Positions 3,612 through 40,123 of a stretch of 40,123 nucleotides of DNA are shown piece by piece. The notes under the pieces are model-generated. The model was not told the DNA's origin and ran no database searches. It saw only the letters and a list, made by a program, of their open reading frames with translations. A program made the translations under genes and the position numbers. This DNA is from a virus (Duplodnaviria; Heunggongvirae; Uroviricota; Caudoviricetes): IMG/VR virus record IMGVR_UViG_2537562231_000015, positions 1 through 40,123 of that record, one strand, 5' to 3'. Each line of letters starts with the position of its first letter. Within the stretch, counting starts at the first letter, position 1.

Positions 3612-3679
3612 AGGGAAAGGTTGCCATCAGGGGAAGAAAGGCGGCAGTGCTGCAACTTGTATCAGTGCTGATACAAAGA

Positions 3680-22018: not shown

Positions 22019-23050
22019 ATGACCATCAGAAAACAGCCGAACGGAAAATGGTTGTGTGAGTGCTATCCCAATGGACGCAATGGCAAGCGCGTGCGTAAGC
22101 AATTTGCCACGAAAGGCGAAGCCATTGCGTTTGAAAGCTTCACAATGGAAGAAGTGAATAAAAAACCGTGGTTGGGTGAAAAGGATGATCGGCGACGCCT
22201 ATCAGAATTAATTGAGCTTTGGTATTCCCTGTATGGTCAGACACTCGCAGACCCCAAGCGCCTCATGGCGAAACTTAGAATTATCTGTAATGGTCTAGGC
22301 GACCCCATCGCCTCTGAGCTGACAGCCGGAGACTTTACGAAATACCGCGAAGCACGGTTAAAAGGTGAAATACGAAATGAAGATGGCACGCTTATGTCGC
22401 CCGTTAAGCCCCGCACGGTAAACCTTGAACAGCGCAATCTATCATCGGTGTTCGGTACATTAAAAAAACTAGGACACTGGTCAGCACCAAACCCGCTGGC
22501 AGGACTTCCGACCTTCAAAATTGCCGAAGGTGAGCTGGCTTTTCTTTCCACGGACGAAATCAAGCGCCTGTTGGCGGCATGTGCTGAATCTCAAAGCCCT
22601 AGCTTACTAATGATTGCAAAAATATGCCTAGCTACTGGCGCACGGTGGAGTGAAGCAGAAAATCTGCAGGGCCATCAGTTATCCAAATACCGCATCACTT
22701 ATACCAAGACGAAGGGCAAGAAAAACCGTACCGTGCCAATATCTCAGGATCTTTACAACGAACTCCCTAAAAACAGAGGAAGGCTATTCACCCCATGCAG
22801 AAAAGCCTTTGAACGGGCAGTAAAACGAGCTGGTATTGAACTGCCAGAGGGACAATGCACCCACGTTCTACGCCATACATTCGCCAGCCATTTCATGATG
22901 AACGGCGGAAACATACTGGTACTGCGCGATATTTTGGGCCATGCCGATATAAAAATGACGATGATTTACGCCCATTTTTCTCCAGACCATCTGGAAGATG
23001 CAGTAACGAAAAACCCTTTGAACTTTATATACTTGTCGAATAACATGTAA
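22019..23050 (+). CDS. int: Tyrosine integrase (P2/186 type)
   Basis: 343-aa ORF; C-terminal HVLRHTFASHFMMNGG...LGHADIKMTMIYAHF catalytic motifs. Confidence 0.9.
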   Translation: MTIRKQPNGKWLCECYPNGRNGKRVRKQFATKGEAIAFESFTMEEVNKKPWLGEKDDRRRLSELIELWYSLYGQTLADPKRLMAKLRIICNGLGDPIASELTAGDFTKYREARLKGEIRNEDGTLMSPVKPRTVNLEQRNLSSVFGTLKKLGHWSAPNPLAGLPTFKIAEGELAFLSTDEIKRLLAACAESQSPSLLMIAKICLATGARWSEAENLQGHQLSKYRITYTKTKGKKNRTVPISQDLYNELPKNRGRLFTPCRKAFERAVKRAGIELPEGQCTHVLRHTFASHFMMNGGNILVLRDILGHADIKMTMIYAHFSPDHLEDAVTKNPLNFIYLSNNM

Positions 23051-23072: not shown

Positions 23073-24086
23073 GTGATCTTAATCTTAAATATGAAACCTA
23101 ATTTAATTTCACGTAAACAGTACCAACACCTCAAAAATGAGTTAAATAGACTTGAGAGCTTACCATATAGACGAGGAAACAACCCAACCAACCTCAGAAT
23201 ATTAAAACTAAGAGAAGATCTAACAAACTCTCTTGTTGAATCCAGAAAAAGAAATTCAAAAAAAATTAATAGAGGAAATGTTAGCTGTATAATATGCAAG
23301 AAAAATTTCAAAAGTGCTCATGGCCTATATGAGCACTATCGCGCCAAGCATAGCAATATGATTGAACACCCTACCTCATTGTTTAATAAAGAAATAAATG
23401 GCAATACAACACTGCTTGAAAGCATTTCGCATCCTGTCACAAAAGGTATACCAATAGCAGAACACGATAAAAAAATATCATCCATTACGCTAAACAGGGA
23501 AACTAAATATTTCAATGTAGATGCGTATAATCTGGCATGCCTTTCATTAACAAAAAGTGAAGCAATAAAAATCGCTAAAGATGAATTATTATCAAGGCAG
23601 TTTCTTGGACAAAAAAACATTCTAGAACCTACTCTACCGCCAGTCATATTTATAAATCCCTCTGATACAATTAGTATACCAGTTGTCACAAAAGGCAATA
23701 CTCATCTGCAAACAATATTACAGCGTGACTCTGGCGAACAGGTTGACTTTAAAAAAAGGGTTCTAAAAAACTTCTCAAATGTATGCGCAATAACAGGTTA
23801 CAACCTCCCAGTATTGCAGGCATGTCACCTTGAACCATTTTCTCAGACCCAAAACCATAGAACCAACAATGGAATACCTCTTGAACCTACCCTTCATGCC
23901 TTGCTTGACCGAGGTCTACTAGCCATACATCCAGATAATTTAACTATTCATTTTGCTATCGATTGCTATTACAAAAATATATATGAAGGAAAAAACATCA
24001 AACCTCATAAGATTGATTTAGATAAAAATTCACTGCTAATAATTTGGAAGAACTTTCTTTTGAATGTTAAAAACAGCCAACCGTAA
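23073..24086 (+). CDS. Zinc-finger plus HNH-like nuclease domain protein (cargo gene)
   Basis: 337-aa AT-rich ORF; C2H2-like CIICKKNF..HGLYEHYRAKH near N-terminus; C-terminal CAITGYN...QACHLEPF...NGIPL...HALLDRGLLAI resembles HNH (HNH_2-like) fold. Confidence 0.55.
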   Translation: MILILNMKPNLISRKQYQHLKNELNRLESLPYRRGNNPTNLRILKLREDLTNSLVESRKRNSKKINRGNVSCIICKKNFKSAHGLYEHYRAKHSNMIEHPTSLFNKEINGNTTLLESISHPVTKGIPIAEHDKKISSITLNRETKYFNVDAYNLACLSLTKSEAIKIAKDELLSRQFLGQKNILEPTLPPVIFINPSDTISIPVVTKGNTHLQTILQRDSGEQVDFKKRVLKNFSNVCAITGYNLPVLQACHLEPFSQTQNHRTNNGIPLEPTLHALLDRGLLAIHPDNLTIHFAIDCYYKNIYEGKNIKPHKIDLDKNSLLIIWKNFLLNVKNSQP

Positions 24087-24213
24087 GTTAGCCTAAAATT
24101 GGCGACAACTTGGCGGCAGAGCATTAAAAATGCGTAAAACGGATAAACACAGGATAATAGTAACACACTGTTTTTGAACGCAAACTACTGTTTTCATTGT
24201 ATTAAAAATAGTA

Positions 24214-24258
24214 TGTAGGAATTTCGGACGCGGGTTCAACTCCCGCCAGCTCCACCAC
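24214..24258 (+). ncRNA. ssrA: 3'-terminal fragment of tmRNA gene ssrA (T-arm and acceptor 3' strand ending CCA); attachment-site core
   Basis: ATGTAGGAATTTCGGACGCGGGTTCAACTCCCGCCAGCTCCACCA matches the E. coli ssrA 3' end from memory; upstream sequence is unrelated AT-rich DNA, so only the 3' portion is present. Confidence 0.75.
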
Positions 24259-24283
24259 TTGCTCTTCCGGATACGTCCGGAGA

Positions 24284-24316
24284 AATCCTGAAAGCCCGCA
24301 TAGCACAAGCTCTGCG
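24284..24316 (+). terminator. Intrinsic terminator downstream of ssrA 3' end
   Basis: GCCCGCA...TGCGGGC stem followed by TTTTTTG. Confidence 0.6.
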
Positions 24317-24367
24317 GGCTTTTTTGTGTCTACCGTTGTCCGAGGATATCCAGCTAAATCCAGTGAT

Positions 24368-24417
24368 TATTGGTATACGTTTAGGTATACGGTAGGATGT
24401 ATACCTAAACGCGTATA
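24368..24417. repeat. Integrase arm-type repeats (GGTATACG family), attL side of the P4-like element
   Basis: ATTGGTATACGTTTAGGTATACG plus inverted GTATACCTAAACGCGTATACC; near-identical 23-mer recurs at 38313-38336. Confidence 0.45.
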
Positions 24418-25051
24418 CCAATTCATGAAGGAGCGGCCAAATTGGCAAGAACGACACGCCCCCTGACCAACACAGAAGTACTGCGCGCTAAAGCGTTAGA
24501 AAAGGATCTAACGTTGCATGATGGCGATGGTCTTTTTCTACTCGTTAAAACGAACGGTAAGAAGTTATGGCGTTTCCGTTATCAACGTCCGGCAACAAAG
24601 CAACGGACAATGATGGGGCTAGGAGCCTTCCCAGCCCTTTCACTTGCTGACGCCCGACGCTTAAGAGCGGATTACCTTTCCTTGTTAGCCAACGGAATTG
24701 ACCCGCAAATTCAAGCTGAAATTGCAGAGGAACAGCAGCAAATCGCACAGGACAGTATTTTCTCGACGGTCGCCGCTAATTGGTTTCAGCTCAAAAGCAA
24801 AAGTGTTACCCCTGATTATGCAAAAGATATTTGGCGCTCATTGGAAAAAGATGTATTCCCCGCCGTTGGTGAGATGCCCGTTCAGCAGATCAAAGCTAGA
24901 ACATTGGTCGAAGCACTTGAGCCAGTCAAAGCTCGTGGGGCATTAGAGACTGTACGTCGTCTGGTGCAACGCATTAACGAAATAATGATTTATGCGGTTA
25001 ACACTGGCTTGATTGATGCAAACCCAGCATCAGGTGGGTAATGACTCCAAC

Positions 25052-25555
25052 TTATTGATAGTGTTTTATGTTCAGATAATGCCCGATGACTTTGTCATGC
25101 AGCTCCACCGATTTTGAGAACGACAGCGACTTCCGTCCCAGCCGTGCCAGGTGCTGCCTCAGATTCAGGTTATGCCGCTCAATTCGCTGCGTATATCGCT
25201 TGCTGATTACGTGCAGCTTTCCCTTCAGGCGGGATTCATACAGCGGCCAGCCATCCGTCATCCATATCACCACGTCAAAGGGTGACAGCAGGCTCATAAG
25301 ACGCCCCAGCGTCGCCATAGTGCGTTCACCGAATACGTGCGCAACAACCGTCTTCCGGAGCCTGTCATACGCGTAAAACAGCCAGCGCTGGCGCGATTTA
25401 GCACCGACATAGCCCCACTGTTCGTCCATTTCCGCGCAGACGATGACGTCACTGCCCGGCTGTATGCGCGAGGTTACCGACTGCGGCCTGAGTTTTTTAA
25501 ATGGCGGAAAATCGTGTTGAGGCCAACGCCCATAATGCGGGCGGTTGCCCGGCAT
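25052..25555 (-). CDS. insB: IS1 InsB
   Basis: 167-aa ORF matching IS1 InsB. Confidence 0.9.
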
Positions 25556-25749
25556 CCAACGCCATTCATGGCCATATCAATGATTTTCTGGTGCGTACCG
25601 GGTTGAGAAGCGGTGTAAGTGAACTGCAGTTGCCATGTTTTACGGCAGTGAGAGCAGAGATAGCGCTGATGTCCGGCGGTGCTTTTGCCGTTACGCACCA
25701 CCCCGTCAGTAGCTGAACAGGAGGGACAGCTGATAGAAACAGAAGCCAC
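25474..25749 (-). CDS. insA: IS1 InsA
   Basis: 91-aa [26 protein letters not shown]... matching IS1 InsA. Confidence 0.9.
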
Positions 25750-26411
25750 TGGAGCACCTCAAAAACACCATCATACACTAAATCAGTAAGTTGGCAGCAT
25801 CACCCATCAGGTGTTGGCATGGCCTTCGAAAAGCCAAAAAAACAAAACATGCCGACGCTTCGACCTGAAGAATTACCAAAGCTGATGCGTTCTTTAGTCA
25901 TGTCAAATCTGTCTATCCCGACTCGCTGTCTAATTGAATGGCAACTCCTGACTCTTGTGCGCCCTTCTGAAGCCTCCAGTACTCGGTGGGAAGAAATCGA
26001 TCTTCATGCAAAGCTCTGGACGATTCCTGCCGAACGGATGAAGGCTAAACGGGAACACATAATTCCTCTATCATCTCAGGCATTAGAGATTCTTAATGTG
26101 ATGAAGCCTATTAGTGCTCATCGTGAATATGTTTTTCCGAGTCGGAATGACCCAAAGAAACCAATGAACAGTCAGACTGCAAATGCAGCTTTAAAACGTA
26201 TTGGTTTTGGCGGAAAATTAGTTGCCCATGGATTACGTTCAATAGCAAGTACAGCCATGAATGAAGCTGGATTAAATCCTGATGTTATCGAGTCTGCCTT
26301 AGCCCACAGTGATAAAAATGAAGTTAGAAAAGCATACAATCGTTCTACTTATCTCGTGCAGCGAATTGAATTGATGGATTGGTGGGGAGAATACGTTAAA
26401 AATAAAAGGGG

Positions 26412-28121
26412 TTAGCCCCCCTTTTTTCTATACAATCTCAAGCACTCGTCCAATTCAATAAGTTGTGAATTACTTAATCGTTCTTTTATATAATAAAATA
26501 CATCTTTTACTGAAGCAATTTCTCTCATCGCTCTATTGCCCATTAAAACATAGTCTTGATACATTCCAATTCTGAAGAATGAATTTGCTGCGCAAGCCAA
26601 CATAATTACTTCGGTCATTGCAGGGAGATTTAAACGATTTGGCTTAAATTTATTTTTATCATATTCGTTAAAACAAGACAAAAAGTTTCTCAATGTTTTT
26701 ATATCAGCAATACCATTTGAAACATTAGTAAATGATTTATATAAATATGGAGAGCATGAATACCAATATATATCACAAACAAGTATAGAACTTCGCTTGT
26801 TCGCAAACTCAAGCCATTCACCCTTATTTCCATTATGCATTAAGTTATATAAGAAATAAAAATGCAACAACCCATTTTTATATTCTTTTTTGGATTGATC
26901 ATAGATTATCTCAATTTTGTCCATGATAGACTGCAAATCAGTGACTTCGCCTAAATTTAACATATTTAGGTATTCACTAAACCACTTCGCTATACTTTTA
27001 GCTGTAAATCCGTCTGCATTCCAGAGCCAATATTGTGCAGATATCTCTGCAACCATTACACCCGATGTTTCCATCACCCAATTAACAGACTCTCTTTTTT
27101 GACTGTAGTTTTTACGGCAAAAATTTATTATCACATGGCGAAGAAGTCGAAGCAATCCAGAGTAACTGAAGTGAGGTTCGCCAAAAAGAACCAGACAATC
27201 ACCAACAGGATTGTAGGCTTTCGAGATCATTGCATCAAGTGGCTTAAGCTCATGGACAAAAGAAGACCTGATTTTGTATAAATTATCTAAAGCTCTACTA
27301 AGGAAGCTATAGCGGATTGGATATCTCTCTGTTTCATTGAAATAATTTTCTTCAAGATTTTTCAGTATAAAATCTTTGAACCTTTTTTGTAATCTGAATT
27401 GTTTGCCTTCAATAAGTATTGATTTAATTTTACAAACATCCTCACCAGGCATATGCTCAAATACAGACTCTAATTCACCTCTGGTTTTTTGATCGTAGTC
27501 ATCCCAATCAGACTTATAGTTATCATTTCTTTGAGACAAAGACTCCAAGGCATAGACTAACATGGAATAAGTCAGGTCAAAGTTGGTTGACAATGATTCT
27601 TTTGAATCACTAATTATTTTTAACGCTGCCATTAAAGATTTAAAGGCAGATCTATTTAGATTCACTACATCTTTAATAAAAGCAGAAAACCCAGAGACAT
27701 CATCAAATGAAACTCTTCGATTAATCTCCACTAAATATGGGGCAACTTCAAGCGCAATTTTTGAGTGATGTTTATTAAAATTTGATAATGCACATATTTT
27801 TTTAACCGATTCTTTTTCTACTCTAGCCACACAATCAAAATAGAATTCCCATAATAAAATAAATTGTTGCCTATAATCCTCATCACCAGCCCTAACTACG
27901 ACTCCAGCTTCAATTCGTTCTGGTTTTTCGGTCAGGAGAGTATAGTTTACCACATAACAGTTTATACCATCATGACTTATTTTATTTGCTTTAAAAAGAG
28001 GGGAGGTGTTTTCCACCGAGAAAGACACATCAACATTTGAATAAAAAACAAATGTGCCATCGTGTTTTTCTATTTTATCTAAATCAAAGAACACTCCAGC
28101 TGATATCTGAAACATACTCAT
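26412..28121 (-). CDS. Hypothetical 569-aa protein in the P4 int-cos variable slot (candidate anti-phage defence)
   Basis: Long AT-rich ORF with no recognised family; contains an R-x4-H motif (RSSFVH); sits where P4 carries gop/beta/cII. Confidence 0.6.
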   Translation of the reverse strand: MSMFQISAGVFFDLDKIEKHDGTFVFYSNVDVSFSVENTSPLFKANKISHDGINCYVVNYTLLTEKPERIEAGVVVRAGDEDYRQQFILLWEFYFDCVARVEKESVKKICALSNFNKHHSKIALEVAPYLVEINRRVSFDDVSGFSAFIKDVVNLNRSAFKSLMAALKIISDSKESLSTNFDLTYSMLVYALESLSQRNDNYKSDWDDYDQKTRGELESVFEHMPGEDVCKIKSILIEGKQFRLQKRFKDFILKNLEENYFNETERYPIRYSFLSRALDNLYKIRSSFVHELKPLDAMISKAYNPVGDCLVLFGEPHFSYSGLLRLLRHVIINFCRKNYSQKRESVNWVMETSGVMVAEISAQYWLWNADGFTAKSIAKWFSEYLNMLNLGEVTDLQSIMDKIEIIYDQSKKEYKNGLLHFYFLYNLMHNGNKGEWLEFANKRSSILVCDIYWYSCSPYLYKSFTNVSNGIADIKTLRNFLSCFNEYDKNKFKPNRLNLPAMTEVIMLACAANSFFRIGMYQDYVLMGNRAMREIASVKDVFYYIKERLSNSQLIELDECLRLYRKKGG

Positions 28122-28412
28122 TCCTTAAACTCAATTGGATCAATCTATCTATATTAACGGATATATTAACAGAACAAAATAATCCTATGCAGTAGCCTAG
28201 CTACTCAAACAATTTCATTACGTTTGTAAGCAATACTCTCCCCACTACACCGTCGAAAGGCGGCTATTTACCACTCCCCTCAGAAGCCATCAGCGGCACA
28301 CTTACCAACATTACCGCGCGACGTCAGGCACCTCCCCTATCCCCCCCAGCCCCTTCCCGACGGTGCTCGGGCGCAAAAAACATTAGTAACGAGCACCAAC
28401 CGGGGGCGCGCA

Positions 28413-28431
28413 GTGCTTTCCCCGCCTCGCC
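28413..28431 (-). other. cos site of the P4-like satellite (identical to P2 19-nt cohesive end)
   Basis: Minus strand reads GGCGAGGCGGGGAAAGCAC exactly, within AAAGCGGGCGGGCGAGGCGGGGAAAGCACTGCGCGC. Confidence 0.8.
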
Positions 28432-28532
28432 CGCCCGCTTTGCGGGGCGGTTTTAATGCAGTTGCACTGACACGCTCAGACCGCGCCGGGAATGGCGCGG
28501 TCTGCAGAAAATGAGGCAGGGAAACGCATGCA

Positions 28533-28566
28533 AAGCCATGCACCTTATCGATGCATGGCTTTTTTC
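28533..28566. terminator. Hairpin with flanking A/T runs between cos and psu
   Basis: AGCCATGCA...TGCATGGCT stem followed by TTTTTT on the plus strand and preceded by an A-run (possible bidirectional terminator). Confidence 0.4.
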
Positions 28567-28595
28567 AGTAAAAACGGGCGGATTTTCGGGGAATT

Positions 28596-29168
28596 TTACA
28601 CAGACTGACGTGATGCCAGTTGCGCACTTTTACGCGAAAAAATCATGTTCTGCGCAGGGGTGAATTTTTCACGGCTGTCATCCACCGAAGCCGCGTCAGG
28701 CCTGAATCCGATGGTCGTTAAAATGTCGCTATCCTGTGCGGAATAATTAATTTTTTCACCCTTCGCAAGCCAGGACAGGAGGGCTTCACGCAGGGCATCT
28801 GTGGCACGCTGTATGGCACAGTTTCGGGCAATGGCCGTCAGATCACTGTAGCCCATCAGCTCCGGTGCCAGTGCCGCCGCCAGTGCTGTGCCGTGCTGCT
28901 GCATAAAATCATTCAGCCGGTCGCGGATGCTGATGTGCTGAACGGCTTCATGCGAACGAATATAACGACCGGCGGCCTGATTCACCTGCCATTTTCTGAC
29001 TTCGATAATATTGCGTAATTCGTCCAGGCGACTGACGTTTCTGCCTTCTCCTGACAGAAGCCGCAGATATTCCTGTTCGGCCGCAGCCAGCTCATTTTTG
29101 CGTTGCAGCCATGCTGCTTTGTTATTCTGACAGGTGTCAAAGGCCTGCTGTAAGGCTGTGCTTTCCAT
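28596..29168 (-). CDS. psu: Psu (polarity suppression / capsid decoration) protein
   Basis: 190-aa ORF, same length as P4 Psu, in the sid-delta-psu-cos arrangement. Confidence 0.85.
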   Translation of the reverse strand: MESTALQQAFDTCQNNKAAWLQRKNELAAAEQEYLRLLSGEGRNVSRLDELRNIIEVRKWQVNQAAGRYIRSHEAVQHISIRDRLNDFMQQHGTALAAALAPELMGYSDLTAIARNCAIQRATDALREALLSWLAKGEKINYSAQDSDILTTIGFRPDAASVDDSREKFTPAQNMIFSRKSAQLASRQSV

Positions 29169-29241
29169 CGTTATCTCTTTCTCATCATGCTGAAGAATAA
29201 AAATACGGTGTGTGGCGACGGCCGGTGTTAACCGGCAGCCC

Positions 29242-29742
29242 TCATTCCAGACGCAGCGAATATGATTGTGTTTTTAACCGTACTGGCGGCAGTTCCTGTT
29301 TTTCATGCAGGCGTTCTGCCAGTTCGTCCGGCGTGACCGGGCGGACAATGAAGCGGGTGATGGTCTGAAGCGTTTTAAACACCAGACCACAGCCCGGATC
29401 CGTGCACACATAAAAACGCTCGGTGACTTCCTGAGACAGACGCCGCGATGTTCTTGACAGTGCAAGGCCTTTACATCTCCGACAACAATATCCGGTAACA
29501 AGCATTCTTTTCGGGCGTTTCATACTGCCGGAGGCCGACGTCAGTGAATCGCGGTATCTCTGTTTGCCTGAAATGTATTCCATTCCTGAATCTTTACTGT
29601 CAGAGAAAAAGCTTTCACTCGCTTCAAATGTCGCAGAGCAATAAATATTCCGGCACTGTGCAATCATTATCTTGGTGCCATCGTCCATGAAATGTGCGCG
29701 ACGGGTGTGAGCAACATGTCCACACGACGGGCAGTAAATCAT
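29242..29742 (-). CDS. delta: Delta late-gene transactivator (tandem Ogr-like zinc finger)
   Basis: 166-aa ORF starting MIYCPSCGH with C-x2-C...C-x4-C pattern, a second Cys cluster further on; same length as P4 Delta. Confidence 0.85.
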   Translation of the reverse strand: MIYCPSCGHVAHTRRAHFMDDGTKIMIAQCRNIYCSATFEASESFFSDSKDSGMEYISGKQRYRDSLTSASGSMKRPKRMLVTGYCCRRCKGLALSRTSRRLSQEVTERFYVCTDPGCGLVFKTLQTITRFIVRPVTPDELAERLHEKQELPPVRLKTQSYSLRLE

Positions 29743-30473
29743 GACAGCAGTCCTCTGGCCTTAAGCTCTGCTCCCTGCTGGTCTATTTTGTCCTGCCACA
29801 CCTTGCGCTGTGCCGGTGTGCCTGCCACCTCATAATCCATGTGCGGGAGTGTTGCCGCTGACAGTCCGGTCAGCCGGAGAACCGGCTCGCCGGTGAGGCT
29901 GATTTGCATCTGTTTAATTTTCTGTTCCAGCGATGATTTCACCTGCTGCATGACAGCCTTTTCCGGTGCGACGTAGCCCTGATGGCCGGTGGTGTTGGCG
30001 AGCGGATTTTCCTGTACCAGGATACTCAGATGCATTGCCCGGACAAGCGCCTCACAGGTTTCATTCAGGGCGTGTTCCAGCTCATGCTCTGCATACAGAC
30101 TCAGAAGGTGATGATGTGCCTTCCGGTAGGCGGTGGCCGTGCTGTCACACGCCCCTTTCAGGCGTTCACGTTCAAAATTCAGCACCACGGCCAGATTGTC
30201 ATATTCCTGTACCAGCTCCCGGCGTGCCACGCGCTCAATGTGGCGCTGTTTCAGCTCGTCGCTCAGGACACCACCGGCTGCACGAAAGGCTGTGCGCCAG
30301 TCATCAGCGTCATTTCCGTCGGCCTGCGCCAGCGCATTTTTTTCCTGCTCTGCCCGTTCAATGGCCTTGACGGTCTCATCCATCAGTCGGGCGTTCTCAA
30401 GATGAGCGGCTCTGGCCTTTTCCAGTTGTGCCAGTGCGGGTTGCAGATATTCAGGGATGGTGTTGTCAGACAT
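29739..30473 (-). CDS. sid: Sid capsid size-determination protein
   Basis: ORF 29739..30491 trimmed to MSDNTIPEYLQ (244 aa, P4 Sid length); overlaps delta start. Confidence 0.85.
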   Translation of the reverse strand: MSDNTIPEYLQPALAQLEKARAAHLENARLMDETVKAIERAEQEKNALAQADGNDADDWRTAFRAAGGVLSDELKQRHIERVARRELVQEYDNLAVVLNFERERLKGACDSTATAYRKAHHHLLSLYAEHELEHALNETCEALVRAMHLSILVQENPLANTTGHQGYVAPEKAVMQQVKSSLEQKIKQMQISLTGEPVLRLTGLSAATLPHMDYEVAGTPAQRKVWQDKIDQQGAELKARGLLS

Positions 30474-30516
30474 TTTCCGGCTCCTCGTCACTTCAGATTA
30501 AGAAAATTGTGACGTA

Positions 30517-30573
30517 CACCGGACAACAACACGACGCATTGCAGATGTGCCAGCCCTGACACAGGAGACTCAT
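30517..30573. promoter_or_regulatory. Two TGT-N12-ACA dyads in the sid upstream region (candidate Delta/Ogr sites for Psid and a divergent late promoter)
   Basis: TGTgacgtacaccggACA at 30517-30534 and TGTgccagccctgacACA at 30556-30573. Confidence 0.35.
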
Positions 30574-30639
30574 CCTCAGACCGGCAAGCCAGGAAAAGGT
30601 CGCAGGAAAAACCGGCTTACTGTTTGTTTTTTTATATTT

Positions 30640-30770
30640 TACTGTTCACCTCTGTTCACCATAAGAAAAAAGATAAGTAATACAGTAAGTTAAAGGGTGA
30701 ACAATCGCAGTAATGACTGTTCACCGTCTGTTCACCACTGTTCACCCGCTCATGGACTTTTTGTGCTGTT
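30640..30770. repeat. P4-type replication origin iterons (TGTTCACC octamers)
   Basis: Six copies of TGTTCACC or its complement at 30643, 30653, 30696, 30718, 30729 and 30739. Confidence 0.6.
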
Positions 30771-31025
30771 TACTACTGTTTGTTTTTATTAATTCGCCGT
30801 GAATGAATAAGAAGAAACGATTTGTATTTCACTATAAAAATTACGAATTGCATTAAGTGGCTTTAAATGACTTTAAGTGGGAATGAACAAAAAACACACA
30901 GTCATTGTAAGGCTGCCGGAACAAATCCCCCCTGTTGCGTCTGCCAAAAATATTCACAAAATAAAGCGCTACCCGAAGCCGGACGGACTTATCCGGTGCT
31001 GTATGGACATTAACGAGGTAGCCCG

Positions 31026-31292
31026 ATGCAAGCTGTTTTTTCTTCCCCGTCTCCCGCCCCTGTGACGCCACTGATGCCGCTGCCGGACATCACGCAGGAG
31101 CGTTTTTTACGTCTGCCGGAAGTGATGCACCTGTGCGGCCTGTCACGCTCGACCATCTATGAACTCATCCGTAAGGGGGAATTTCCGCCGCAGGTGAGTC
31201 TTGGCGGTAAAAATGTGGCCTGGCTGCACTCTGAAGTCACCGCATGGATGGCCGGACGCATTGCCGGACGCAAACGGGGGTACGACGCATGA
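31026..31292 (+). CDS. vis: Vis/AlpA-family excision regulator (P4 orf88 equivalent)
   Basis: 88-aa ORF with AlpA-like HTH ([27 protein letters not shown]); GAGGTAG SD. Confidence 0.75.
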
Positions 31293-31325
31293 TGATGCCC
31301 GCTCTGCAAAAACTCCCTTTTTCTG

Positions 31326-31355
31326 GCTTGCCTTTTTCCGGCATTTGCGGATATA
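31326..31355 (+). promoter_or_regulatory. Candidate sigma70 promoter (PLE-like)
   Basis: TTGCCT, 18-bp spacer, TATAGT; upstream of the RNA-immunity region. Confidence 0.35.
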
Positions 31356-31510
31356 GTTTTTCCGCTGCCGCAAAATCGGCAGCCGGGCGTAGGAACCCGA
31401 GTTACTTCAAGGCGACATATGACGCGCCATGCGTCTTTTTTTACGTCGTTGCTTCGGCACACCTGTTTTTCTGGCTGTGGTTTTTAAACCGTAGCCTCTG
31501 TCAGATAATG

Positions 31511-31590
31511 GTGGTCCGGGCGGGGCAGCCTTCGGGCTGGCCGGTTTCCTTGAAGGCCGGTATTCCTACCCCCGTCCGGGCTACCACCCA
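31511..31590 (+). ncRNA. cI: Candidate P4-type CI immunity RNA
   Basis: Structured GC-rich segment containing CCTTGAAGG and TATTCCTAC, complementary to repeated GTAGGAAC...ACTTCAAGG elements at 31385-31412 and 31595-31640. Confidence 0.45.
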
Positions 31591-31645
31591 TGAGCGTAGG
31601 AACTCCAGTGGTAGCTGTAACTGTTACTTCAAGGAGGCTGCCATC

Positions 31646-31843
31646 ATGGCTACAACCCTTACCCCCTCACACCCTGAATTTGTCTTTGTGTTTGCGGCTG
31701 TCCGTCGCGCAGGCCGTCATCCCCGTATCTGTATGCTTCGCACCGTCGCCGGTGATGAACGCAGCGCCCGCCGTTCCCTTGTCCGTGACTATGTGCTCTC
31801 CCTTGCTGCCCGTCTGCCGGTGGTGGAGGTGTCCCGTGCGTAA
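31646..31843 (+). CDS. Small protein downstream of the immunity RNA
   Basis: 65-aa ORF with AAGGAGG SD that overlaps the downstream target repeat. Confidence 0.4.
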
Positions 31844-32100
31844 TAAAAAAGCCCCTCAGACCGTCTCAGCACGTCATGACGCCCGTGAACACCTCAGCAT
31901 TGAGGCTTACCATAAGCTCAACCGCGCCAGCGCCGTATCCCAGTTTGTTGGGGGTGATTTGATTCACCGTGAACTCTCCGGCCTGCATCAGCTCTACATT
32001 CCGCATATTTTCAGCGTAAGCGTAAACTGACCGCCGTATGTAGCCATCAGACGAGAATTGGTAACTTAGACGCCCATCTGATATAGACGGACATCTAAGT

Positions 32101-32526
32101 ATGGAATTACAGGACTGGCGAAAAGAACCTCGTAAAAACTATTCGAATGAATTCAAACTTCGTATGGTGGAACTGGCATCACAACCTGGAGCTTGTGTTG
32201 CACAGATTGCACGTGAAAATGGCGTCAATGATAATGTTATTTTCAAATGGCTCAGGCTCTGGCAGAACGAAGGGCGTGTTTCGCGGCGTCTTCCGGTAAC
32301 GACCTCTTCTGACACTGGCGTTGAATTATTACCTGTAGAAATAACGCCGGATGAGCAGAAAGAACCTGTGGCGGCCATTGCGCCGTCTTTATCCACTTCC
32401 ACTCAGACCAGAGTCAGTGCCAGTTCCTGCAAGGTGGAATTCCGTCACGGTAACATGACGCTGGAAAATCCATCGCCAGAGCTGCTCACAGTGTTGATCC
32501 GTGAACTGACCGGGAGGGGAAGATGA
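32101..32526 (+). CDS. IS66-family accessory protein (orf1/TnpA)
   Basis: 141-aa ORF, first gene of the IS66 three-gene array. Confidence 0.8.
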   Translation: MELQDWRKEPRKNYSNEFKLRMVELASQPGACVAQIARENGVNDNVIFKWLRLWQNEGRVSRRLPVTTSSDTGVELLPVEITPDEQKEPVAAIAPSLSTSTQTRVSASSCKVEFRHGNMTLENPSPELLTVLIRELTGRGR

Positions 32527-32873
32527 TCTCACTCCCATCAGGTACCCGTATCTGGCTCGTTGCCGGCGTTACCGATATGCGTAAATCCTTCAACGGACTG
32601 GGAGAACAGGTACAACATGTGCTGAATGATAATCCCTTCTCCGGTCACCTGTTTATCTTCCGTGGCCGACGGGGTGACACCGTCAAAATTCTTTGGGCTG
32701 ATGCTGATGGTCTGTGCCTGTTCACCAAACGCCTGGAGGAAGGCCAGTTTATCTGGCCTGCGGTACGTGACGGCAAGGTATCCATTACCCGCTCGCAACT
32801 GGCAATGCTCCTCGATAAGCTGGACTGGCGTCAGCCAAAAACATCCAGCCGTAACTCACTGACAATGTTGTAA
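32523..32873 (+). CDS. IS66-family Orf2 (TnpB)
   Basis: 116-aa ORF overlapping orf1 stop; conserved IS66 orf2 size. Confidence 0.85.
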   Translation: MISLPSGTRIWLVAGVTDMRKSFNGLGEQVQHVLNDNPFSGHLFIFRGRRGDTVKILWADADGLCLFTKRLEEGQFIWPAVRDGKVSITRSQLAMLLDKLDWRQPKTSSRNSLTML

Positions 32874-32903
32874 AAAACTCCTGACCGCATTATAAAAACG
32901 GTC

Positions 32904-34517
32904 ATGAGTCAGAAATACCTCATTCGCATCGCAGAGCTGGAAAGGTTGCTCTCTGAGCAGGCTGAAGCCCTCCGTCAGAAAGACCAGCAACTGAGTCTGG
33001 TTGAAGAGACGGAAGCCTTCCTGCGCTCTGCACTGACACGTGCCGAAGAAAAGATCGAAGAAGATGAACGGGAAATAGAACATCTGCGGGCTCAGATAGA
33101 AAAACTGCGCCGGATGCTGTTCGGTACCCGTTCTGAAAAACTGCGTCGTGAAGTTGAACTGGCTGAGGCTCTGCTGAAACAACGTGAACAGGACAGCGAT
33201 CGTTACAGTGGGCGGGAAGACGATCCTCAGGTTCCCCGCCAGTTGCGACAGTCGCGCCATCGTCGTCCGTTACCGGCACACCTTCCCCGTGAAATACACC
33301 GCCTGGAGCCAGAAGAAAGCTGTTGCCCGGAGTGTGGCGGTGAGCTGGATTATCTGGGGGAAGTCAGCGCTGAACAGCTGGAACTGGTGAGCAGTGCCCT
33401 GAAAGTGATCCGCACAGAACGGGTAAAAAAAGCCTGTACAAAATGTGACTGTATTGTTGAAGCACCGGCGCCGTCCCGCCCGATAGAGCGTGGTATCGCG
33501 GGCCCCGGATTACTTGCCCGCGTGTTAACGGGAAAATACTGCGAACATCTGCCACTGTATCGTCAGAGTGAAATCTTTGCCCGCCAGGGTGTCGAACTGA
33601 GCCGGGCCTTACTCTCCAACTGGGTTGACGCGTGCTGCCAGTTAATGACACCGGTGAATGATGCCCTGTACCGTTATGTAATGAACACCCGCAAGGTTCA
33701 CACTGATGACACACCGGTAAAGGTACTGGCACCGGGTCAGAAAAAGGCGAAAACAGGGCGTATCTGGACGTATGTCCGGGATGATCGCAATGTGGGTTCG
33801 TCATCTCCTCCAGCGGTCTGGTTCGCGTACTCGCCGAACCGGCAGGGGAAACACCCGGAGCAACACCTCCGCCCCTTCCGGGGTATCCTGCAGGCGGATG
33901 CGTTCACAGGTTACGACAGGTTGTTCAGTGCAGAACGTGAAGGTGGTGCACTGACAGAAGTTGCGTGCTGGGCCCATGCCCGGCGAAAAATCCACGATGT
34001 ATACATCAGCAGCAAAAGTGCGACGGCAGAAGAAGCCCTGAAGCGAATCAGTGAACTGTACGCCATCGAGGATGAAATACGGGGATTACCGGAGTCAGAG
34101 CGTCTTGCCGTCAGGCAGCAGCGAAGCAAAGTGTTACTGACGTCGCTGCATGAATGGATGGTGGAGAAGAATGGTACGCTGTCGAAAAAATCCAGACTGG
34201 GCGAAGCGTTCAGCTATGTACTGAATCAGTGGGATGCCCTCTGTTATTACAGTGATGACGGTCTGGCGGAGGCGGATAATAATGCTGCGGAAAGAGCGCT
34301 TCGTGCAGTCTGTCTCGGAAAGAAAAACTTTATGTTCTTTGGCAGCGATCACGGCGGCGAGCGTGGAGCACTGTTGTACGGGCTGATCGGCACCTGCCGT
34401 CTGAACGGTATCGATCCGGAAGCGTATCTGCGCCATATCCTGAGCGTACTGCCGGAATGGCCTTCCAACCGAGTTGACGAACTCCTGCCATGGAACGTAG
34501 TACTCACCAATAAATAA
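32904..34517 (+). CDS. IS66-family transposase (TnpC)
   Basis: 537-aa ORF with N-terminal coiled coil, zinc-finger-like CPECGG and C-terminal DDE region. Confidence 0.9.
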   Translation: MSQKYLIRIAELERLLSEQAEALRQKDQQLSLVEETEAFLRSALTRAEEKIEEDEREIEHLRAQIEKLRRMLFGTRSEKLRREVELAEALLKQREQDSDRYSGREDDPQVPRQLRQSRHRRPLPAHLPREIHRLEPEESCCPECGGELDYLGEVSAEQLELVSSALKVIRTERVKKACTKCDCIVEAPAPSRPIERGIAGPGLLARVLTGKYCEHLPLYRQSEIFARQGVELSRALLSNWVDACCQLMTPVNDALYRYVMNTRKVHTDDTPVKVLAPGQKKAKTGRIWTYVRDDRNVGSSSPPAVWFAYSPNRQGKHPEQHLRPFRGILQADAFTGYDRLFSAEREGGALTEVACWAHARRKIHDVYISSKSATAEEALKRISELYAIEDEIRGLPESERLAVRQQRSKVLLTSLHEWMVEKNGTLSKKSRLGEAFSYVLNQWDALCYYSDDGLAEADNNAAERALRAVCLGKKNFMFFGSDHGGERGALLYGLIGTCRLNGIDPEAYLRHILSVLPEWPSNRVDELLPWNVVLTNK

Positions 34518-34655
34518 GCGTCAATACGGTGCTCCGTTGACGCTTACTTTTCAGCTACCTGAATGAAGATATTGATTTTGTGCTGAATGAGCTGAAAGCC
34601 AAAGGCCTGTGCCGCGATTTTCTCGCCCAGCAGAAAGACCGGGGAGACAGGACGC

Positions 34656-35111
34656 ATGTTTGATTTTCCCCAGCCCGGTGAGATTTACCGTTCTGCCGGT
34701 TTTCCCGATGTGGCCGTGGTCGGCATTCTGGAAGACGGTATTCCGTGGGAAATGCCGTACCGCTGCCCGGACATTGTCTGGAACCCGTACCGCCGTAAAT
34801 TCAGTATCCTTGTGCGTATCCTCGCTGACGGGCGCACCACAGACATCCCGCTGGGGCGTTTTCTGCGGGAATTTACCTGTGACCGTCCTGACCTGTTCAA
34901 ACGCAGCCCCGTAAACCGGCATGCGGTACTGAAAGAAATGGCCGGAGACCCGGAATTACAGAAATGGCGGGAGAAATATCTGGATATTTACCCGCAGGAC
35001 ACTGTTCCGGTCAGCCGGGCGGCACCGGTGGCGCGGGAATGGCGGGAAATTCCCCGCACGGAGCCTGACCCGGAAATCACCCCGGATAACAGTTACCGCA
35101 ATTATCTGTAA
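34656..35111 (+). CDS. P4 orf151-like protein
   Basis: 151-aa ORF, same length and position as P4 orf151. Confidence 0.55.
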   Translation: MFDFPQPGEIYRSAGFPDVAVVGILEDGIPWEMPYRCPDIVWNPYRRKFSILVRILADGRTTDIPLGRFLREFTCDRPDLFKRSPVNRHAVLKEMAGDPELQKWREKYLDIYPQDTVPVSRAAPVAREWREIPRTEPDPEITPDNSYRNYL

Positions 35112-35246
35112 TTAAAAAACGACACCCGAAAAATTAAATGTGCGTATTCGCGCAGGGATACGCACGTCTTCAGGAGACGCAGATATGCCTTATCAGTTAA
35201 TGCAACCGGCACGGAATGCAGTCATCTGTCACAGGGAGGAAAGCAA

Positions 35247-35567
35247 ATGAAAACACCCTTACCGCCCGTCTTACGCGCTGCCCTTTACCGTCGCGCTGTC
35301 GCCTGTGCCTGGCTGACCGTGTGCGAACGTCAGCACCGCTACCCGCATCTCACCCTTGAGTCACTGGAGGCGGCCATCGCCGCTGAGCTGGAAGGCTTTT
35401 ATCTGCGCCAGCACGGTGAGGAAAAAGGGCGTCAGATAGCCTGTGCCCTGCTGGAAGATTTAATGGAATCCGGCCCCCTGAAGGCCGCGCCGTCGCTGTC
35501 CTTTCTCGGGCTGGTTGTGATGGATGAACTCTGTGCCCGTCACATAAAAGCGCCGGTACTGCACTGA
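35247..35567 (+). CDS. P4 orf106-like protein
   Basis: 106-aa ORF directly upstream of alpha. Confidence 0.55.
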
Positions 35568-35581
35568 AGGAGAACAACACC

Positions 35582-37915
35582 ATGAAAATGAACGTAACCG
35601 CCACCGTCAGCCATGCGCTCGGCCACTGGCCGCGTATTCTCCCGGCGCTGGGGATTCAGGTGCTGAAAAACCGTCATCAGCCCTGTCCGGTCTGTGGCGG
35701 GAGTGACCGCTTCCGTTTTGATGACAGGGAGGGGCGCGGCACCTGGTACTGCAATCAGTGTGGTGCCGGTGACGGCCTGAAACTGGTTGAAAAGGTGTTT
35801 GGTGTCTCCCCGTCCGACGCGGCCGCAAAGGTGGCTGCCGTGACCGGCAGTCTGCCCCCGGCTGACCCGGCAGTGACGGCCGCCGCCGTTGCTGAAACAG
35901 ACGCTGCCCGGAAGAACGCCGCCGCACTGGCACAAACCCTGATGGCAAAAACCCGTCCCGGAACCGGTAACGCCTACCTGACCCGCAAGGGCTTTCCCGG
36001 CCGGGAATGCCGGATGCTGACCGGCACACACAGAGCCGGTGGCGTGAGCTGGCGCGCCGGTGACCTTGTGGTGCCACTGTATGACGACAGCGGCGAACTG
36101 GTTAACCTTCAGTTAATCAGTGCTGACGGCCGTAAGCGTACCCTGAAAGGCGGACAGGTCAGGGGCACCTGTCACACCCTTGAAGGACAGAATCAGGCCG
36201 GAAAACGTCTGTGGATAGCGGAGGGATACGCGACCGCACTTACCGTACATCACCTGACCGGTGAAACGGTGATGGTGGCGCTTTCTTCCGTGAACCTCCT
36301 TTCTCTGGCCAGCCTTGCCCGGCAGAAGCATCCGGCCTGTCATATTGTCCTTGCTGCTGACCGTGACCTCAGCGGTGACGGCCAGACAAAAGCCGCCGCA
36401 GCCGCAGATGCGTGTGAAGGTGTTGTTGCCCTGCCGCCGGTCTTCGGTGACTGGAATGATGCCTTCACGCAGTACGGCGGGGAAGCCACCCGTAAGGCCA
36501 TTTATGATGCCATCCGGCCACCGGCTGAAAGCCCGTTCGACACCATGAGCGAAGCGGAGTTTTCCGCCATGAGTACCAGCGAAAAGGCCATGCGTATCTA
36601 TGAGCATTACGGCGAGGCGCTCGCGGTCGATGCCAACGGCCAGCTTCTGTCCCGTTATGAAAATGGTGTCTGGAAGGTGCTGCCACCACAGGACTTTGCC
36701 CGGGATGTGGCCGGGCTGTTTCAGCGGCTGCGCGCGCCGTTCTCCTCCGGGAAGGTGGCCTCCGTGGTGGACACCCTGAAGCTGATTATTCCGCAGCAGG
36801 AAGCCCCCTCCCGCCGCCTGATTGGCTTTCGTAACGGCGTGCTCGACACGCAGAGCGGCACGTTCCACCCGCACAGTCCGTCACACTGGATGCGCACCCT
36901 GTGCGATGTGGATTTCACCCCGCCGGTGGAAGGGGAAACGCTGGAAACCCACGCCCCCGCGTTCTGGCGCTGGCTTGACCGTGCCGCCGGTGGTCGTGCG
37001 GAAAAACGCGACGTGATTCTGGCCGCACTGTTTATGGTGCTGGCAAACCGCTACGACTGGCAGCTCTTTCTGGAGGTGACCGGTCCCGGCGGCAGCGGCA
37101 AAAGTATCATGGCCGAAATAGCCACCCTGCTGGCCGGGGAAGATAACGCCACGTCGGCCACCATTGAGACGCTGGAATCCCCGCGTGAACGTGCCGCGTT
37201 AACTGGCTTCTCACTGATACGCCTGCCGGACCAGGAAAAATGGAGCGGCGACGGAGCCGGACTCAAGGCCATCACCGGCGGCGATGCGGTGTCCGTTGAC
37301 CCGAAATACCGGGATGCGTACTCCACGCACATCCCGGCGGTGATTCTGGCCGTGAACAATAACCCGATGCGCTTCACCGACCGCAGCGGCGGCGTGTCAC
37401 GCCGGCGGGTGATTATTCACTTCCCGGAACAGATAGCCCCGCAGGAGCGCGACCCGCAGCTTAAGGACAAAATCACCCGCGAGCTGGCGGTCATCGTGCG
37501 TCACCTGATGCAGAAGTTCAGCGACCCGATGCTCGCCCGGTCACTGCTTCAGTCCCAGCAGAACTCAGACGAGGCGCTGAACATCAAACGGGATGCCGAC
37601 CCGACGTTTGATTTTATCGGCTATCTGGAAACCCTGCCGCAGACCAGCGGCATGTATATGGGGAACGCGAGTATCATCCCGCGCAATTACCGTAAATACC
37701 TCTATCACGCCTATCTGGCCTACATGGAGGCAAACGGCTACCGGAACGTACTCAGTCTGAAAATGTTCGGGCTGGGGCTGCCGGTGATGCTGAAGGAATA
37801 CGGACTGAATTACGAGAAGCGCCATACCAAACAGGGGATACAGACCAACCTGACGCTGAAAGAGGAAAGCTACGGCGACTGGCTGCCAAAATGTGACGAC
37901 CCTGCAACAACCTGA
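35582..37915 (+). CDS. alpha: Alpha primase-helicase (P4 replication protein)
   Basis: 777-aa ORF, same length as P4 alpha; N-terminal zinc-binding primase motif CPVCGGSDRFRFDD...WYCNQCG. Confidence 0.9.
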   Translation: MKMNVTATVSHALGHWPRILPALGIQVLKNRHQPCPVCGGSDRFRFDDREGRGTWYCNQCGAGDGLKLVEKVFGVSPSDAAAKVAAVTGSLPPADPAVTAAAVAETDAARKNAAALAQTLMAKTRPGTGNAYLTRKGFPGRECRMLTGTHRAGGVSWRAGDLVVPLYDDSGELVNLQLISADGRKRTLKGGQVRGTCHTLEGQNQAGKRLWIAEGYATALTVHHLTGETVMVALSSVNLLSLASLARQKHPACHIVLAADRDLSGDGQTKAAAAADACEGVVALPPVFGDWNDAFTQYGGEATRKAIYDAIRPPAESPFDTMSEAEFSAMSTSEKAMRIYEHYGEALAVDANGQLLSRYENGVWKVLPPQDFARDVAGLFQRLRAPFSSGKVASVVDTLKLIIPQQEAPSRRLIGFRNGVLDTQSGTFHPHSPSHWMRTLCDVDFTPPVEGETLETHAPAFWRWLDRAAGGRAEKRDVILAALFMVLANRYDWQLFLEVTGPGGSGKSIMAEIATLLAGEDNATSATIETLESPRERAALTGFSLIRLPDQEKWSGDGAGLKAITGGDAVSVDPKYRDAYSTHIPAVILAVNNNPMRFTDRSGGVSRRRVIIHFPEQIAPQERDPQLKDKITRELAVIVRHLMQKFSDPMLARSLLQSQQNSDEALNIKRDADPTFDFIGYLETLPQTSGMYMGNASIIPRNYRKYLYHAYLAYMEANGYRNVLSLKMFGLGLPVMLKEYGLNYEKRHTKQGIQTNLTLKEESYGDWLPKCDDPATT

Positions 37916-37921
37916 CCCACC

Positions 37922-37947
37922 TGACCGGCATCTGCCGGTCTTTTTTT
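37922..37947 (+). terminator. Intrinsic terminator after alpha
   Basis: GACCGGCA-tct-GCCGGTC stem followed by TTTTTTT. Confidence 0.7.
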
Positions 37948-37954
37948 ATCCCGA

Positions 37955-38270
37955 CCTCCCCCGAAGGTGAACAATCCACTGTTCACCCTTCACCGTATAT
38001 TCACCCGTTATCACACTGAAATTAAAAGAGAAAAATGAAAGGTGAACAGTGTGAACAATCAAATCAAAAAAAACTTTTTTCTCCCTGTGTGATTTCAGTA
38101 CGGGGGATTAATCACCAGTAGGAGTCACACCGGCAGAATGCCGGAGGTGAAGAATCGAATGTTCACCCTTCACCCATTATTCACCACCTATCATACTGAA
38201 ATAAAAGGAGAAAAAAGAAAGGTGAACAGTGTGAACAGTTCTTTCGAAAAAAAATTTTTTTCCTGTACGA
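37955..38270. repeat. crr-like cis replication region: two ~125-bp direct repeats with TGTTCACC/GGTGAACA iterons
   Basis: Units at about 37955-38080 and 38140-38268 align along their length, separated by about 60 bp. Confidence 0.65.
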
Positions 38271-38312
38271 TATAGCATCAATCCAAGTAAAAATGCGCTT
38301 TCATTTCACATT

Positions 38313-38336
38313 AACTTACAGCCATTGGTATACGAT
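38313..38336. repeat. Integrase arm-type repeat, attR side of the P4-like element
   Basis: ATTGGTATACGATTAGGTATACG, one mismatch from the copy at 24368-24390. Confidence 0.45.
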
Positions 38337-38547
38337 TAGGTATACGCACAAAAACTAAATTAAACAAAATCATTAAAAATCAAAGCAATAAAGCATTTAT
38401 TCAAACTCCGCCAGCCAATCATGATTGGACGGTGTAAGGACAACACCAACAAAAACAGGAAGTTAGAAGTCTCAGCAAAACACCGACCAGACGGTGAGGA
38501 GACATAAAAGGATACGCAAAGGAGCCGCGGCTCCTGGTAACATGAAA

Positions 38548-38571
38548 GCCCACAGATGTGGGCTTTTTCGT
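38548..38571 (+). terminator. Putative intrinsic terminator
   Basis: AGCCCACA-gat-GTGGGCT stem followed by TTTTT. Confidence 0.45.
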
Positions 38572-38577
38572 TGATGG

Positions 38578-39353
38578 TCAGAACGACCAGTTCACACCAG
38601 CTACCGCGTTCCACGGGGATTCCACACCGGCACTATGGCTATACCCCACCCCAAGATGCCCGCTTAACGTACTGCTGAATGAGGCTTTAATACCTGCCTG
38701 GTATATTCCACGTCTGCCCGACAAATAATTGACGAAATTACCGTCACTATTCACTTTCACCCGGTTATCATCGACAAATTCTTTGCGCACAGCCGCCTTC
38801 AGCCACGGCTCAACTTCCATACCGTTCCCCAGACGCATGTTGTAACTCAGCGTTGCGCCCAGTTCACGATATATACTGCGGGTATCGACTGATTTCGATT
38901 TCATGCCATTGGATAAATGATATTCGGGGTTATCAGCGGTGAACCCCGTTAACGATGCATACGGCGTCAGGTTCCAGTTACCATCGGTAAATCGCATCCC
39001 GGTTTCAATGTGACCGCCCAGCCCGTTGCTGTGGTAACTGCCATTGGCGGCTCCACCGCTGCTCATTTTACCTGCTACGTTACTTTTAAAACGGTTCAGC
39101 TTCACGACACCGTCCAGATAGAAACCACTTTCATGTTCCCAACTGGCATAGCCGCCCAGAGAATAACTGCCCACACTGCCATGTCCTCCGCGATCAAAAC
39201 CGATATGTGAATGGGAATAGCCCATAAAAGCGCCTAGCGTGGTAATTCCTTCAGGAATATCATTACGGCTGTCGATCCCCACTGTCATTCCGGTCAGCGT
39301 CTGCTCAAACCCGGCACCCGCATCGGTGGTGACATTATTACGGGTGTTATACG
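38578..39353 (-). pseudogene. Autotransporter beta-barrel domain remnant, 5'-truncated by IS66-family insertion
   Basis: Glycine/aromatic-rich beta-strand pattern ending ...GVNWSF; gene upstream is replaced by the IS end at 39354. Confidence 0.55.
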
Positions 39354-40123
39354 GTAAGCGACTCGTCAGAACCGTATTGATATTTACTGAGAGCTCAGAT
39401 CAACTTTCCAGGGCAACAGATCGCGTACCCGGTTTGCCGGCCAGTCCTGGATATGTTCAATGACGTAACGCAGCCACTTTTCTGGCTCCACATTGTTCAG
39501 ACGGCATGTGCCGATCAGCGAGTACAACACCGCCGCATGTTCACCACCGCTGTCGGAACCCGCGAACAGCCAGTTTTTCCGGCCTACGGCCACTCCCCGT
39601 AAGGCGTTCTCTGCGATGTTGTTGTCGATTTCCACCCAGCCATTACTGCAGTACACGTTCAGGGCCTCCCACTGTTTCAGCAGGTATGCGAACGCTTTTG
39701 CCGTATCCGAGTGACGCGACAGTGTTTTCATCTGAGTCTGTATCCAGTCATACAGTGACTGCATCAGTGGCGCAGCTCTGGCTTTTCTTGCTGCCAGACG
39801 CTGTTCTGCTGAACATCCCCGGACTTCTGCCTCGATGGCATACAGTTCACCGATACGCTGCAGGGCTTCCGTGGTGATATCGGTTGGCGCTCTTGCATGC
39901 ACATCGTGGATTTTTCTCCGGGCATGGGCCATACACGCGGCTTCCGTTATTCTGCCGGATTCGTATAACGCCCGGTAGCCACCGTAAGCATCGGCCTGAA
40001 GCACTCCGCTGTAACCGGCCAGGTGATTTTGTGGATGGATGCCTTTCCGGTCCGGGCTGTACGCGAACCAGACCGCCGCAGGCATCTGTGAACCGGCGTT
40101 ACGGTCATCACGGACGTAGACCC
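39354..40123 (-). mobile_element. Second IS66-family element, partial (runs off window)
   Basis: Terminal GTAAGCG... at 39354 located 30 bp beyond the transposase stop, same geometry as the first IS66 copy. Confidence 0.8.
39384..40123 (-). CDS. IS66-family transposase C-terminal portion (partial at window edge)
   Basis: Translation aligns with the C-terminal part of the TnpC at 32904-34517 but is clearly divergent. Confidence 0.85.

Follow-up and report, generated by a model that had tools for sequence, protein, structure and literature searches.

Replication of the satellite phage P4 is initiated without a need for host DnaA, and Cnr acts as the regulator of alpha activity and copy number. 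The P4 record annotates six ori type 1 repeats (9310-9413) and three type 2 repeats (9176-9205), the same ori features are present in an older record (i.e. X05623), and a further region, crr, is described as required in cis for replication both in the P4 GenBank record and in a recent P4-engineering preprint. As the P4 origin and crr have been annotated in GenBank since the P4 sequencing era, both are already known. Binding of the origin repeats has been assigned to alpha (PMC4234260), a protein in which a primase, an SF3 helicase and a winged-helix domain follow one another in this order (PMC2777425). A single polypeptide in which primase, D5_N/SF3 helicase and winged-helix succeed one another is likewise found in pRN1 ORF904 and poxvirus D5, although the primase fold is different (prim/pol in pRN1) and the pRN1 origin, unlike a P4-type ori, is without iterons. 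The pri-rep-ori modules of Gram-negative PICIs (Fillol-Salom et al. 2018, PMC6092414) are similar to the P4 system in having two sets of short iterons flanking an A+T-rich stretch and a primase/replicase encoded by the element; their origins are, however, described as one site beside the replication genes, whereas P4 needs crr as a distant second cis site. A survey of P4-like satellites of Enterobacterales, which scored proteins and not ori or crr, reported such elements in nearly half of the genomes of E. coli (Moura de Sousa and Rocha 2021, PMC8628076).

The window analysed here (i.e. the whole stretch of 40,123 nt of IMG/VR record IMGVR_UViG_2537562231_000015) contains a P4-like satellite prophage (24210-38420) located at ssrA, with the autotransporter gene ypjA at its right border. 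All seven core components of P4-like satellites were found, in order; two of these, int (split by IS1) and epsilon (split by an ISEc23-family element), are pseudogenes, a difference from the satellites of that survey (PMC8628076). Three segments aligned to the reverse strand of P4 (X51522), namely 28432-31448 with 11624-8608 (98.1% identical), 31507-32015 with 8504-7996 (93.5%) and 34548-38260 with 8003-4291 (98.4%). We conclude that the locus is almost certainly the ori1/crr/alpha replicon of a P4-type satellite prophage. Since the octamers, alpha, the crystallised origin-binding domain and Cnr all match P4, this identification is correct and was already known; its import beyond annotation is small, and its use is a precise map of the cis sites, alpha, cnr and two disconnecting insertion sequences.

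Repeats of the origin and of crr

The octamer TGTTCACC occurs as six exact copies at 30643-30746, located 170-270 bp upstream of the sid start (30473). The first-pass annotation had placed six iterons at 30640-30770 upstream of sid; all six are exact, but they comprise five direct copies and one that is inverted. Iterons 1 (30643..30650, +) and 2 (30653..30660, +) correspond to the P4 'ori type 1 repeat' at 9406-9413 and to P4 9396-9403, respectively. A 35-bp A+T-rich spacer follows, bounded on its other side by the inverted iteron 3 (30696..30703, -; P4 9353-9360), and iterons 4 (30718..30725), 5 (30729..30736) and 6 (30739..30746), all on the + strand, are the counterparts of P4 9331-9338, 9320-9327 and 9310-9317. 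The region between sid and orf88 hence contains six type 1 octamers on the two sides of an A+T-rich spacer, in the order and orientation of P4 replicon I (X51522, X05623 and X02534).

BLAST-block mapping combined with the P4 annotation placed the counterpart of the P4 'origin of DNA replication' (P4 9086-9809) at 30247..30970, an interval that comprises the beginning of sid and the region between sid and orf88. Within it, three 10-bp ori type 2 repeats (GCATTAAGTG GCTTTAAATG ACTTTAAGTG) are found at 30851..30880 (P4 9176-9205). One of these differs from both P4 and an IS-free relative by a substitution at base 30852, the sole change from P4 within any annotated repeat. The GC content was 27-32% across 30630-30720 and 25-32% over 30513-30852, and no ORF of at least 50 aa was present on either strand of the latter interval. 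Searches of ori for DnaA boxes, IHF sites and GATC found none, and the absence of DnaA boxes is consistent with DnaA-independent initiation.

Two direct repeats of 120 nt, 83% identical to each other, were observed 3' of alpha at 37961..38080 (P4 4471-4590) and 38141..38260 (P4 4291-4410). Their starts are 180 bp apart and a 60-bp spacer separates them, reproducing the 120 + 60 + 120 bp geometry of the P4 crr. The repeats after alpha and their sharing of the origin octamer had been noticed before, and both hold, with the length corrected from 125 bp to 120 nt. Ten octamer sites with at most one mismatch, five per 120-nt unit, were located at 37966-, 37980+, 37998+, 38041- and 38050- in the first repeat and at 38146-, 38160+, 38178+, 38221- and 38230- in the second, and are the same ten that are annotated in P4. 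Exact copies of TGTTCACC directly after alpha number five (i.e. 37966(-), 37980(+), 38041(-), 38160(+) and 38221(-)), and the one-mismatch octamers of the crr repeats are TATTCACC, TGTTCACA and TCTTCACC. The alpha terminator (t-alpha; 37923..37940, +), a 7-pair stem followed by a T-run that is equivalent to P4 'talpha' (4604-4628), lies between alpha and crr as in P4, and homology to P4 ends at 38260 with the end of the second repeat. The left half of ori has the layout of the core of a crr unit, i.e. two direct octamers, an A+T-rich spacer of ~35 bp and an inverted octamer.

Alignment of the window to the annotated P4 origin and crr gave 97.5-99% identity, bearing out the earlier proposal of a P4 ori plus crr architecture. 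The accompanying claim that the cis elements and alpha are intact also stands: all 16 octamers annotated in P4 (six in ori and ten in crr) are identical, base for base, and the alpha ORF is full-length at 777 aa.

Alpha, Cnr and the interrupted operon

The alpha gene (35582..37915, +) is uninterrupted and encodes a combined primase, SF3 helicase and origin-binding protein, identical to P4 alpha at 768 of 776 residues (99%). Pfam domains Zn_Ribbon_Prim, Toprim_3, D5_N, DUF5906 and Pox_D5 were detected, and residues 671-770 are 100% identical to PDB 1KA8, the crystallised P4 origin-binding domain; the zinc ribbon, Toprim primase, SF3 helicase and C-terminal winged-helix are therefore all present. 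No extra iteron cluster that might represent a second origin was found within alpha, which contains three scattered one-mismatch sites alone. Directly upstream of alpha is cnr (ORF106; 35247..35567, +; Pfam DUF5375), whose product is identical to P4 ORF106 at 106 of 106 residues. By analogy with P4, the C-terminal winged-helix domain of alpha would bind the octamers at ori and crr, the SF3 helicase would then unwind the A+T-rich DNA and the Toprim primase would prime synthesis; crr would be needed in cis, and Cnr would restrain alpha and hence copy number. Octamer binding by alpha and alpha-dependent replication from ori plus crr are thus predicted from the identity to P4 and from the assignment of repeat binding in the literature (PMC4234260).

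Sid, Delta, Psu and ORF88 are 98-99% identical to their P4 counterparts. The capsid size determination gene sid (29739..30473, -; 99.2% to P4 Sid) is transcribed away from ori, and orf88 (31026..31292, +; 98.9% to P4 ORF88; Pfam Phage_AlpA), encoding an alpA/vis-type HTH protein, is the first gene rightward of it. A P2/P4-type cos site was read directly as the cohesive-end sequence GGCGAGGCGGGGAAAGCAC (28413..28431, -) by comparison with the P4 ends. A consensus scan detected a promoter-like site (TTGCCT-18-TATAGT; 31328..31357, +), which is probably the P4 early promoter PLE; a '-10' is annotated at the equivalent place in X02534. An isrK-like RNA (31364-31441, +; Rfam RF01394, 73.4 bits) and a C4-family antisense RNA (i.e. 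the P4 CI immunity RNA; 31504..31591, +; Rfam RF01695, 86.1 bits) follow. As compared to P4, a divergent patch of 58 bp (31449-31506) replaces 103 bp (P4 8505-8607). This patch is located between the isrK-like RNA and the C4/CI RNA, and the next 0.5 kb is 93.5% identical to P4 as against 98% elsewhere; together, the patch and the diverged 0.5 kb could represent a different immunity specificity.

Damage by insertion sequences had been annotated as lying elsewhere, a description that does not hold for the ISEc23-family (IS66-like) element of 2,532 bp at 32016..34547 (+), which sits inside the alpha operon. The element was delimited by BLAST blocks and NCBIfam matches, carries tnpA, tnpB and a transposase gene, and is named after an equivalent copy that RefSeq assigns to the ISEc23 family; the junction sequences contain an 8-bp target duplication, TTTTCAGC, at 32008-32015 and 34548-34555. 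It has the orientation of the operon, which it interrupts 3.5 kb 5' of alpha, and divides epsilon (ash) into a 5' part (residues 1-60; 31836..32015, +) and a 3' part (residues 58-95; 34547-34660), both identified by tblastn with P4 epsilon. The insertion leaves orf88, the promoter-like site, the isrK-like RNA and the C4 RNA on its 5' side and orf151, cnr and alpha on its 3' side, the first intact operon gene beyond it being orf151 (34656..35111, +; 99.3% identical to P4 ORF151). An uninterrupted operon from the ori-side promoters through epsilon, orf151, cnr and alpha, as in P4, is therefore not present, and the ori-crr distance is increased from 4,675 to 7,215 bp (i.e. 7.2 kb as compared to 4.7 kb in P4). 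The broken operon bears on the activity of the present copy and not on its descent from the P4 family.

Separation of the upstream promoter region from orf151-cnr-alpha means that expression of alpha is not to be assumed; the site at 31328-31357, now cut off from alpha, is the sole promoter-like site detected 5' of alpha other than in the transposase gene. A consensus scan for promoters between the insertion and alpha produced nothing convincing: the region contained three sites as compared to 4.0 expected, the sole 9-of-12 match (34255-34283) was within the transposase gene, and the old '-10' annotation of X02534 at 3627-3632 (~35152-35157 of the window) is a mere consensus match. A search of the + strand over 31436-37922 revealed no strong intrinsic terminator, and read-through into alpha is possible since the insertion is co-oriented with the operon.

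The second insertion, an IS1 at 25037..25804 (-), was identified from NCBIfam and Pfam matches, comparison with the IS-free relative and the junctions, and is flanked by a 9-bp target duplication, CATCAGGTG. It splits the integrase into an N-terminal part starting at 24442 and a C-terminal part extending to 26415. The parts of the replicon are structurally intact; the module is disconnected by the ISEc23-family element and the integrase is split by IS1.

Alternative readings and present state

Two other explanations of the octamers themselves were weighed against an origin. A chance or low-complexity feature has nothing in its favour beyond the A+T-rich context and is refuted: TGTTCACC occurs 14 times in the whole window as compared to 1.39 expected (sd 1.40, largest 7) from 100 dinucleotide-preserving shuffles, a tenfold enrichment that none of the 100 shuffles reached, and the octamers are identical to those of P4 at each base and conserved between genera. 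Copies at 3811, 32719 and 39538 are scattered and within chance. It is extremely improbable that the sid/orf88 octamers are mainly operator sites for transcription factors of divergent promoters and not origin iterons. They do lie between divergent gene sets (i.e. sid-delta-psu and orf88 onward), in an interval where the P4 late promoters are located, but the same octamer recurs ten times in crr, 3' of a terminator, where it drives no gene, and in the P4 records these sites are listed as repeats of the origin. Against an operator function there is also the literature, which gives origin-repeat binding to alpha (PMC4234260).

With the origin assignment retained, the question becomes one of activity. 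The present state is most likely that of a non-excising prophage with an origin that, judging from the sequence, would be silent or poorly served by alpha. Its rescue through provision of alpha in trans should be feasible. The earlier inference of retained replication competence is supported in part and was overstated. An appreciable possibility, to which we give rather less than even weight, is that the locus is a dead relic in which the cis sites and alpha are intact only through the recency of the insertions, alpha is unexpressed and there is no replication, excision or packaging in the natural setting. An IS-free twin in E. coli SCPM-O-B-9504 exhibits ~6 differences over the shared stretch and none in alpha, the iterons or crr, indicating that the insertions are recent; intact ORFs then reflect recent insertion and are no evidence of retained function. 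The splitting of both epsilon and int, the lack of a clear promoter between the ISEc23-family element and alpha, and a size of ~14.2 kb with both insertions as compared to ~10.8 kb without them, which may hinder packaging into small capsids, point in the same direction. Polarity may, however, be partial, as the ISEc23-family element is co-oriented and without a strong terminator, every part needed in cis and in trans is unmutated, and an adjoining P2/186-type helper prophage could supply activators. Very unlikely, in our judgement, is a locked element (i.e. with int split by IS1) with a complete ori/crr/alpha that fires in situ, via read-through from the insertion or via the helper, and amplifies the ssrA-region chromosome together with the helper prophage. 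If this were so, cnr-alpha could escape P4 immunity control by being expressed through read-through from ISEc23, which is located 3' of the immunity region with the CI RNA, or the adjacent P2/186-type helper could activate the alpha operon on induction, and an ISEc23 insertion in the alpha operon of strain RM9387 would hint at recurrent, selected rewiring and not at accident.

The RM9387 insertion was detected in a search of complete E. coli genomes, none of which contained the exact P4/ISEc23 junction. The sole full-coverage match to the junction, in RM9387, represents another insertion, which is situated 0.56 kb beyond this point and in a distinct P4-like element. This independent ISEc23-family insertion (NZ_CP009104.1, 8760-11300) has the same orientation, belongs to a P4-like element at tRNA-Leu and is positioned in the alpha operon between orf151 and cnr; its occurrence could be a coincidence or could indicate that the operon is preferred, or selected, as a target.

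An Int fragment (199 aa) truncated by IS1 exactly as here was present in at least 29 blocks of public assemblies, and its left neighbour varied, being ssrA alone, a prophage of the P2/186 type or some other phage. Presence of the truncated fragment in so many blocks with several left neighbours indicates that the IS1 insertion marks a lineage, and the variation in these neighbours that it is older than several rearrangements at the site. In the L085 assembly, no P4-type genes were called past IS1, suggestive of a partial deletion of the satellite.

Prophage context and distribution

Apart from the insertions, the element differs from P4 in its integrase, which is just 35-37% identical to P4 Int, and in its location at ssrA and not at the P4 site. 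The location was assigned from relatives and from reading of the sequence, the ssrA/ypjA arrangement being found also in the E. coli SCPM-O-B-9504 and PSS-08-2 relatives. No tmRNA was detected in the window by ARAGORN, or at gathering score over 23500-40123 with Rfam; the 3' end of ssrA alone is present, on the attL side. This ssrA 3' fragment (~24222-24262) is situated between the satellite and a P2/186-type prophage (window 1-24200) lying in tandem with it, a helper-plus-satellite arrangement also observed in PSS-08-2. The P2/186-type prophage encodes a replication endonuclease (16175-18589), a CI protein (21385-22017) and an integrase (22019-23050).

Pairs of 11-bp repeats (ATTGGTATACG and TTAGGTATACG) were observed near both ends of the satellite, at 24369-24391 and 38324-38346, and resemble the arm-type sites of integrases. 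At ~38404-38420, the ssrA 3' end is repeated in degenerate form as CAAACTCCGCCAGCC, which is likely the attR core. Beyond this border, the ypjA remnant consists of the autotransporter beta-domain alone (38578-39288); a second IS66-family transposase gene (39384-40085, -) is 70-85% similar to the ISEc23-family copy, and its element truncates ypjA from 39354.

In the variable slot between int and cos, a single gene of 569 aa (26412-28121, -) takes the place of gop, beta and cII of P4. No Pfam or NCBIfam match was obtained for its product, and PADLOC produced a weak match to Cas13-ApeA (E = 7e-6, residues 150-275), making this a candidate anti-phage gene.

The distribution of the origin was examined with a 341-bp ori segment, counted at a coverage of at least 80%, which was present in 976 of 5,426 complete E. 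coli genomes (~18%). The segment was always chromosomal in these genomes, and without a RefSeq feature; the survey of P4-like satellites likewise reports elements that are chromosomal only (PMC8628076). Conservation beyond E. coli was assessed for 57 loci with enough flanking sequence, from other Enterobacterales genera, in which the alpha homologues are 58-86% identical. A cluster of at least four iterons (one mismatch allowed) was found 1.6-2.6 kb upstream of alpha in 43 of the 57 loci. At least four octamers, at the same stringency, were located within 500 bp downstream of alpha in 22 of 57, as compared to a median of two for background clusters. The downstream cluster was displaced to +0.7 to +2.3 kb in several of the loci, indicating that spacing of the ori-crr type varies naturally. 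In Rosenbergiella, Pectobacterium and Serratia, where the alpha homologues are just 58-61% identical, clusters of TGTTCACC (one mismatch at most) are still found upstream of the gene, and conservation of the iteron may therefore exceed that of its cognate initiator.
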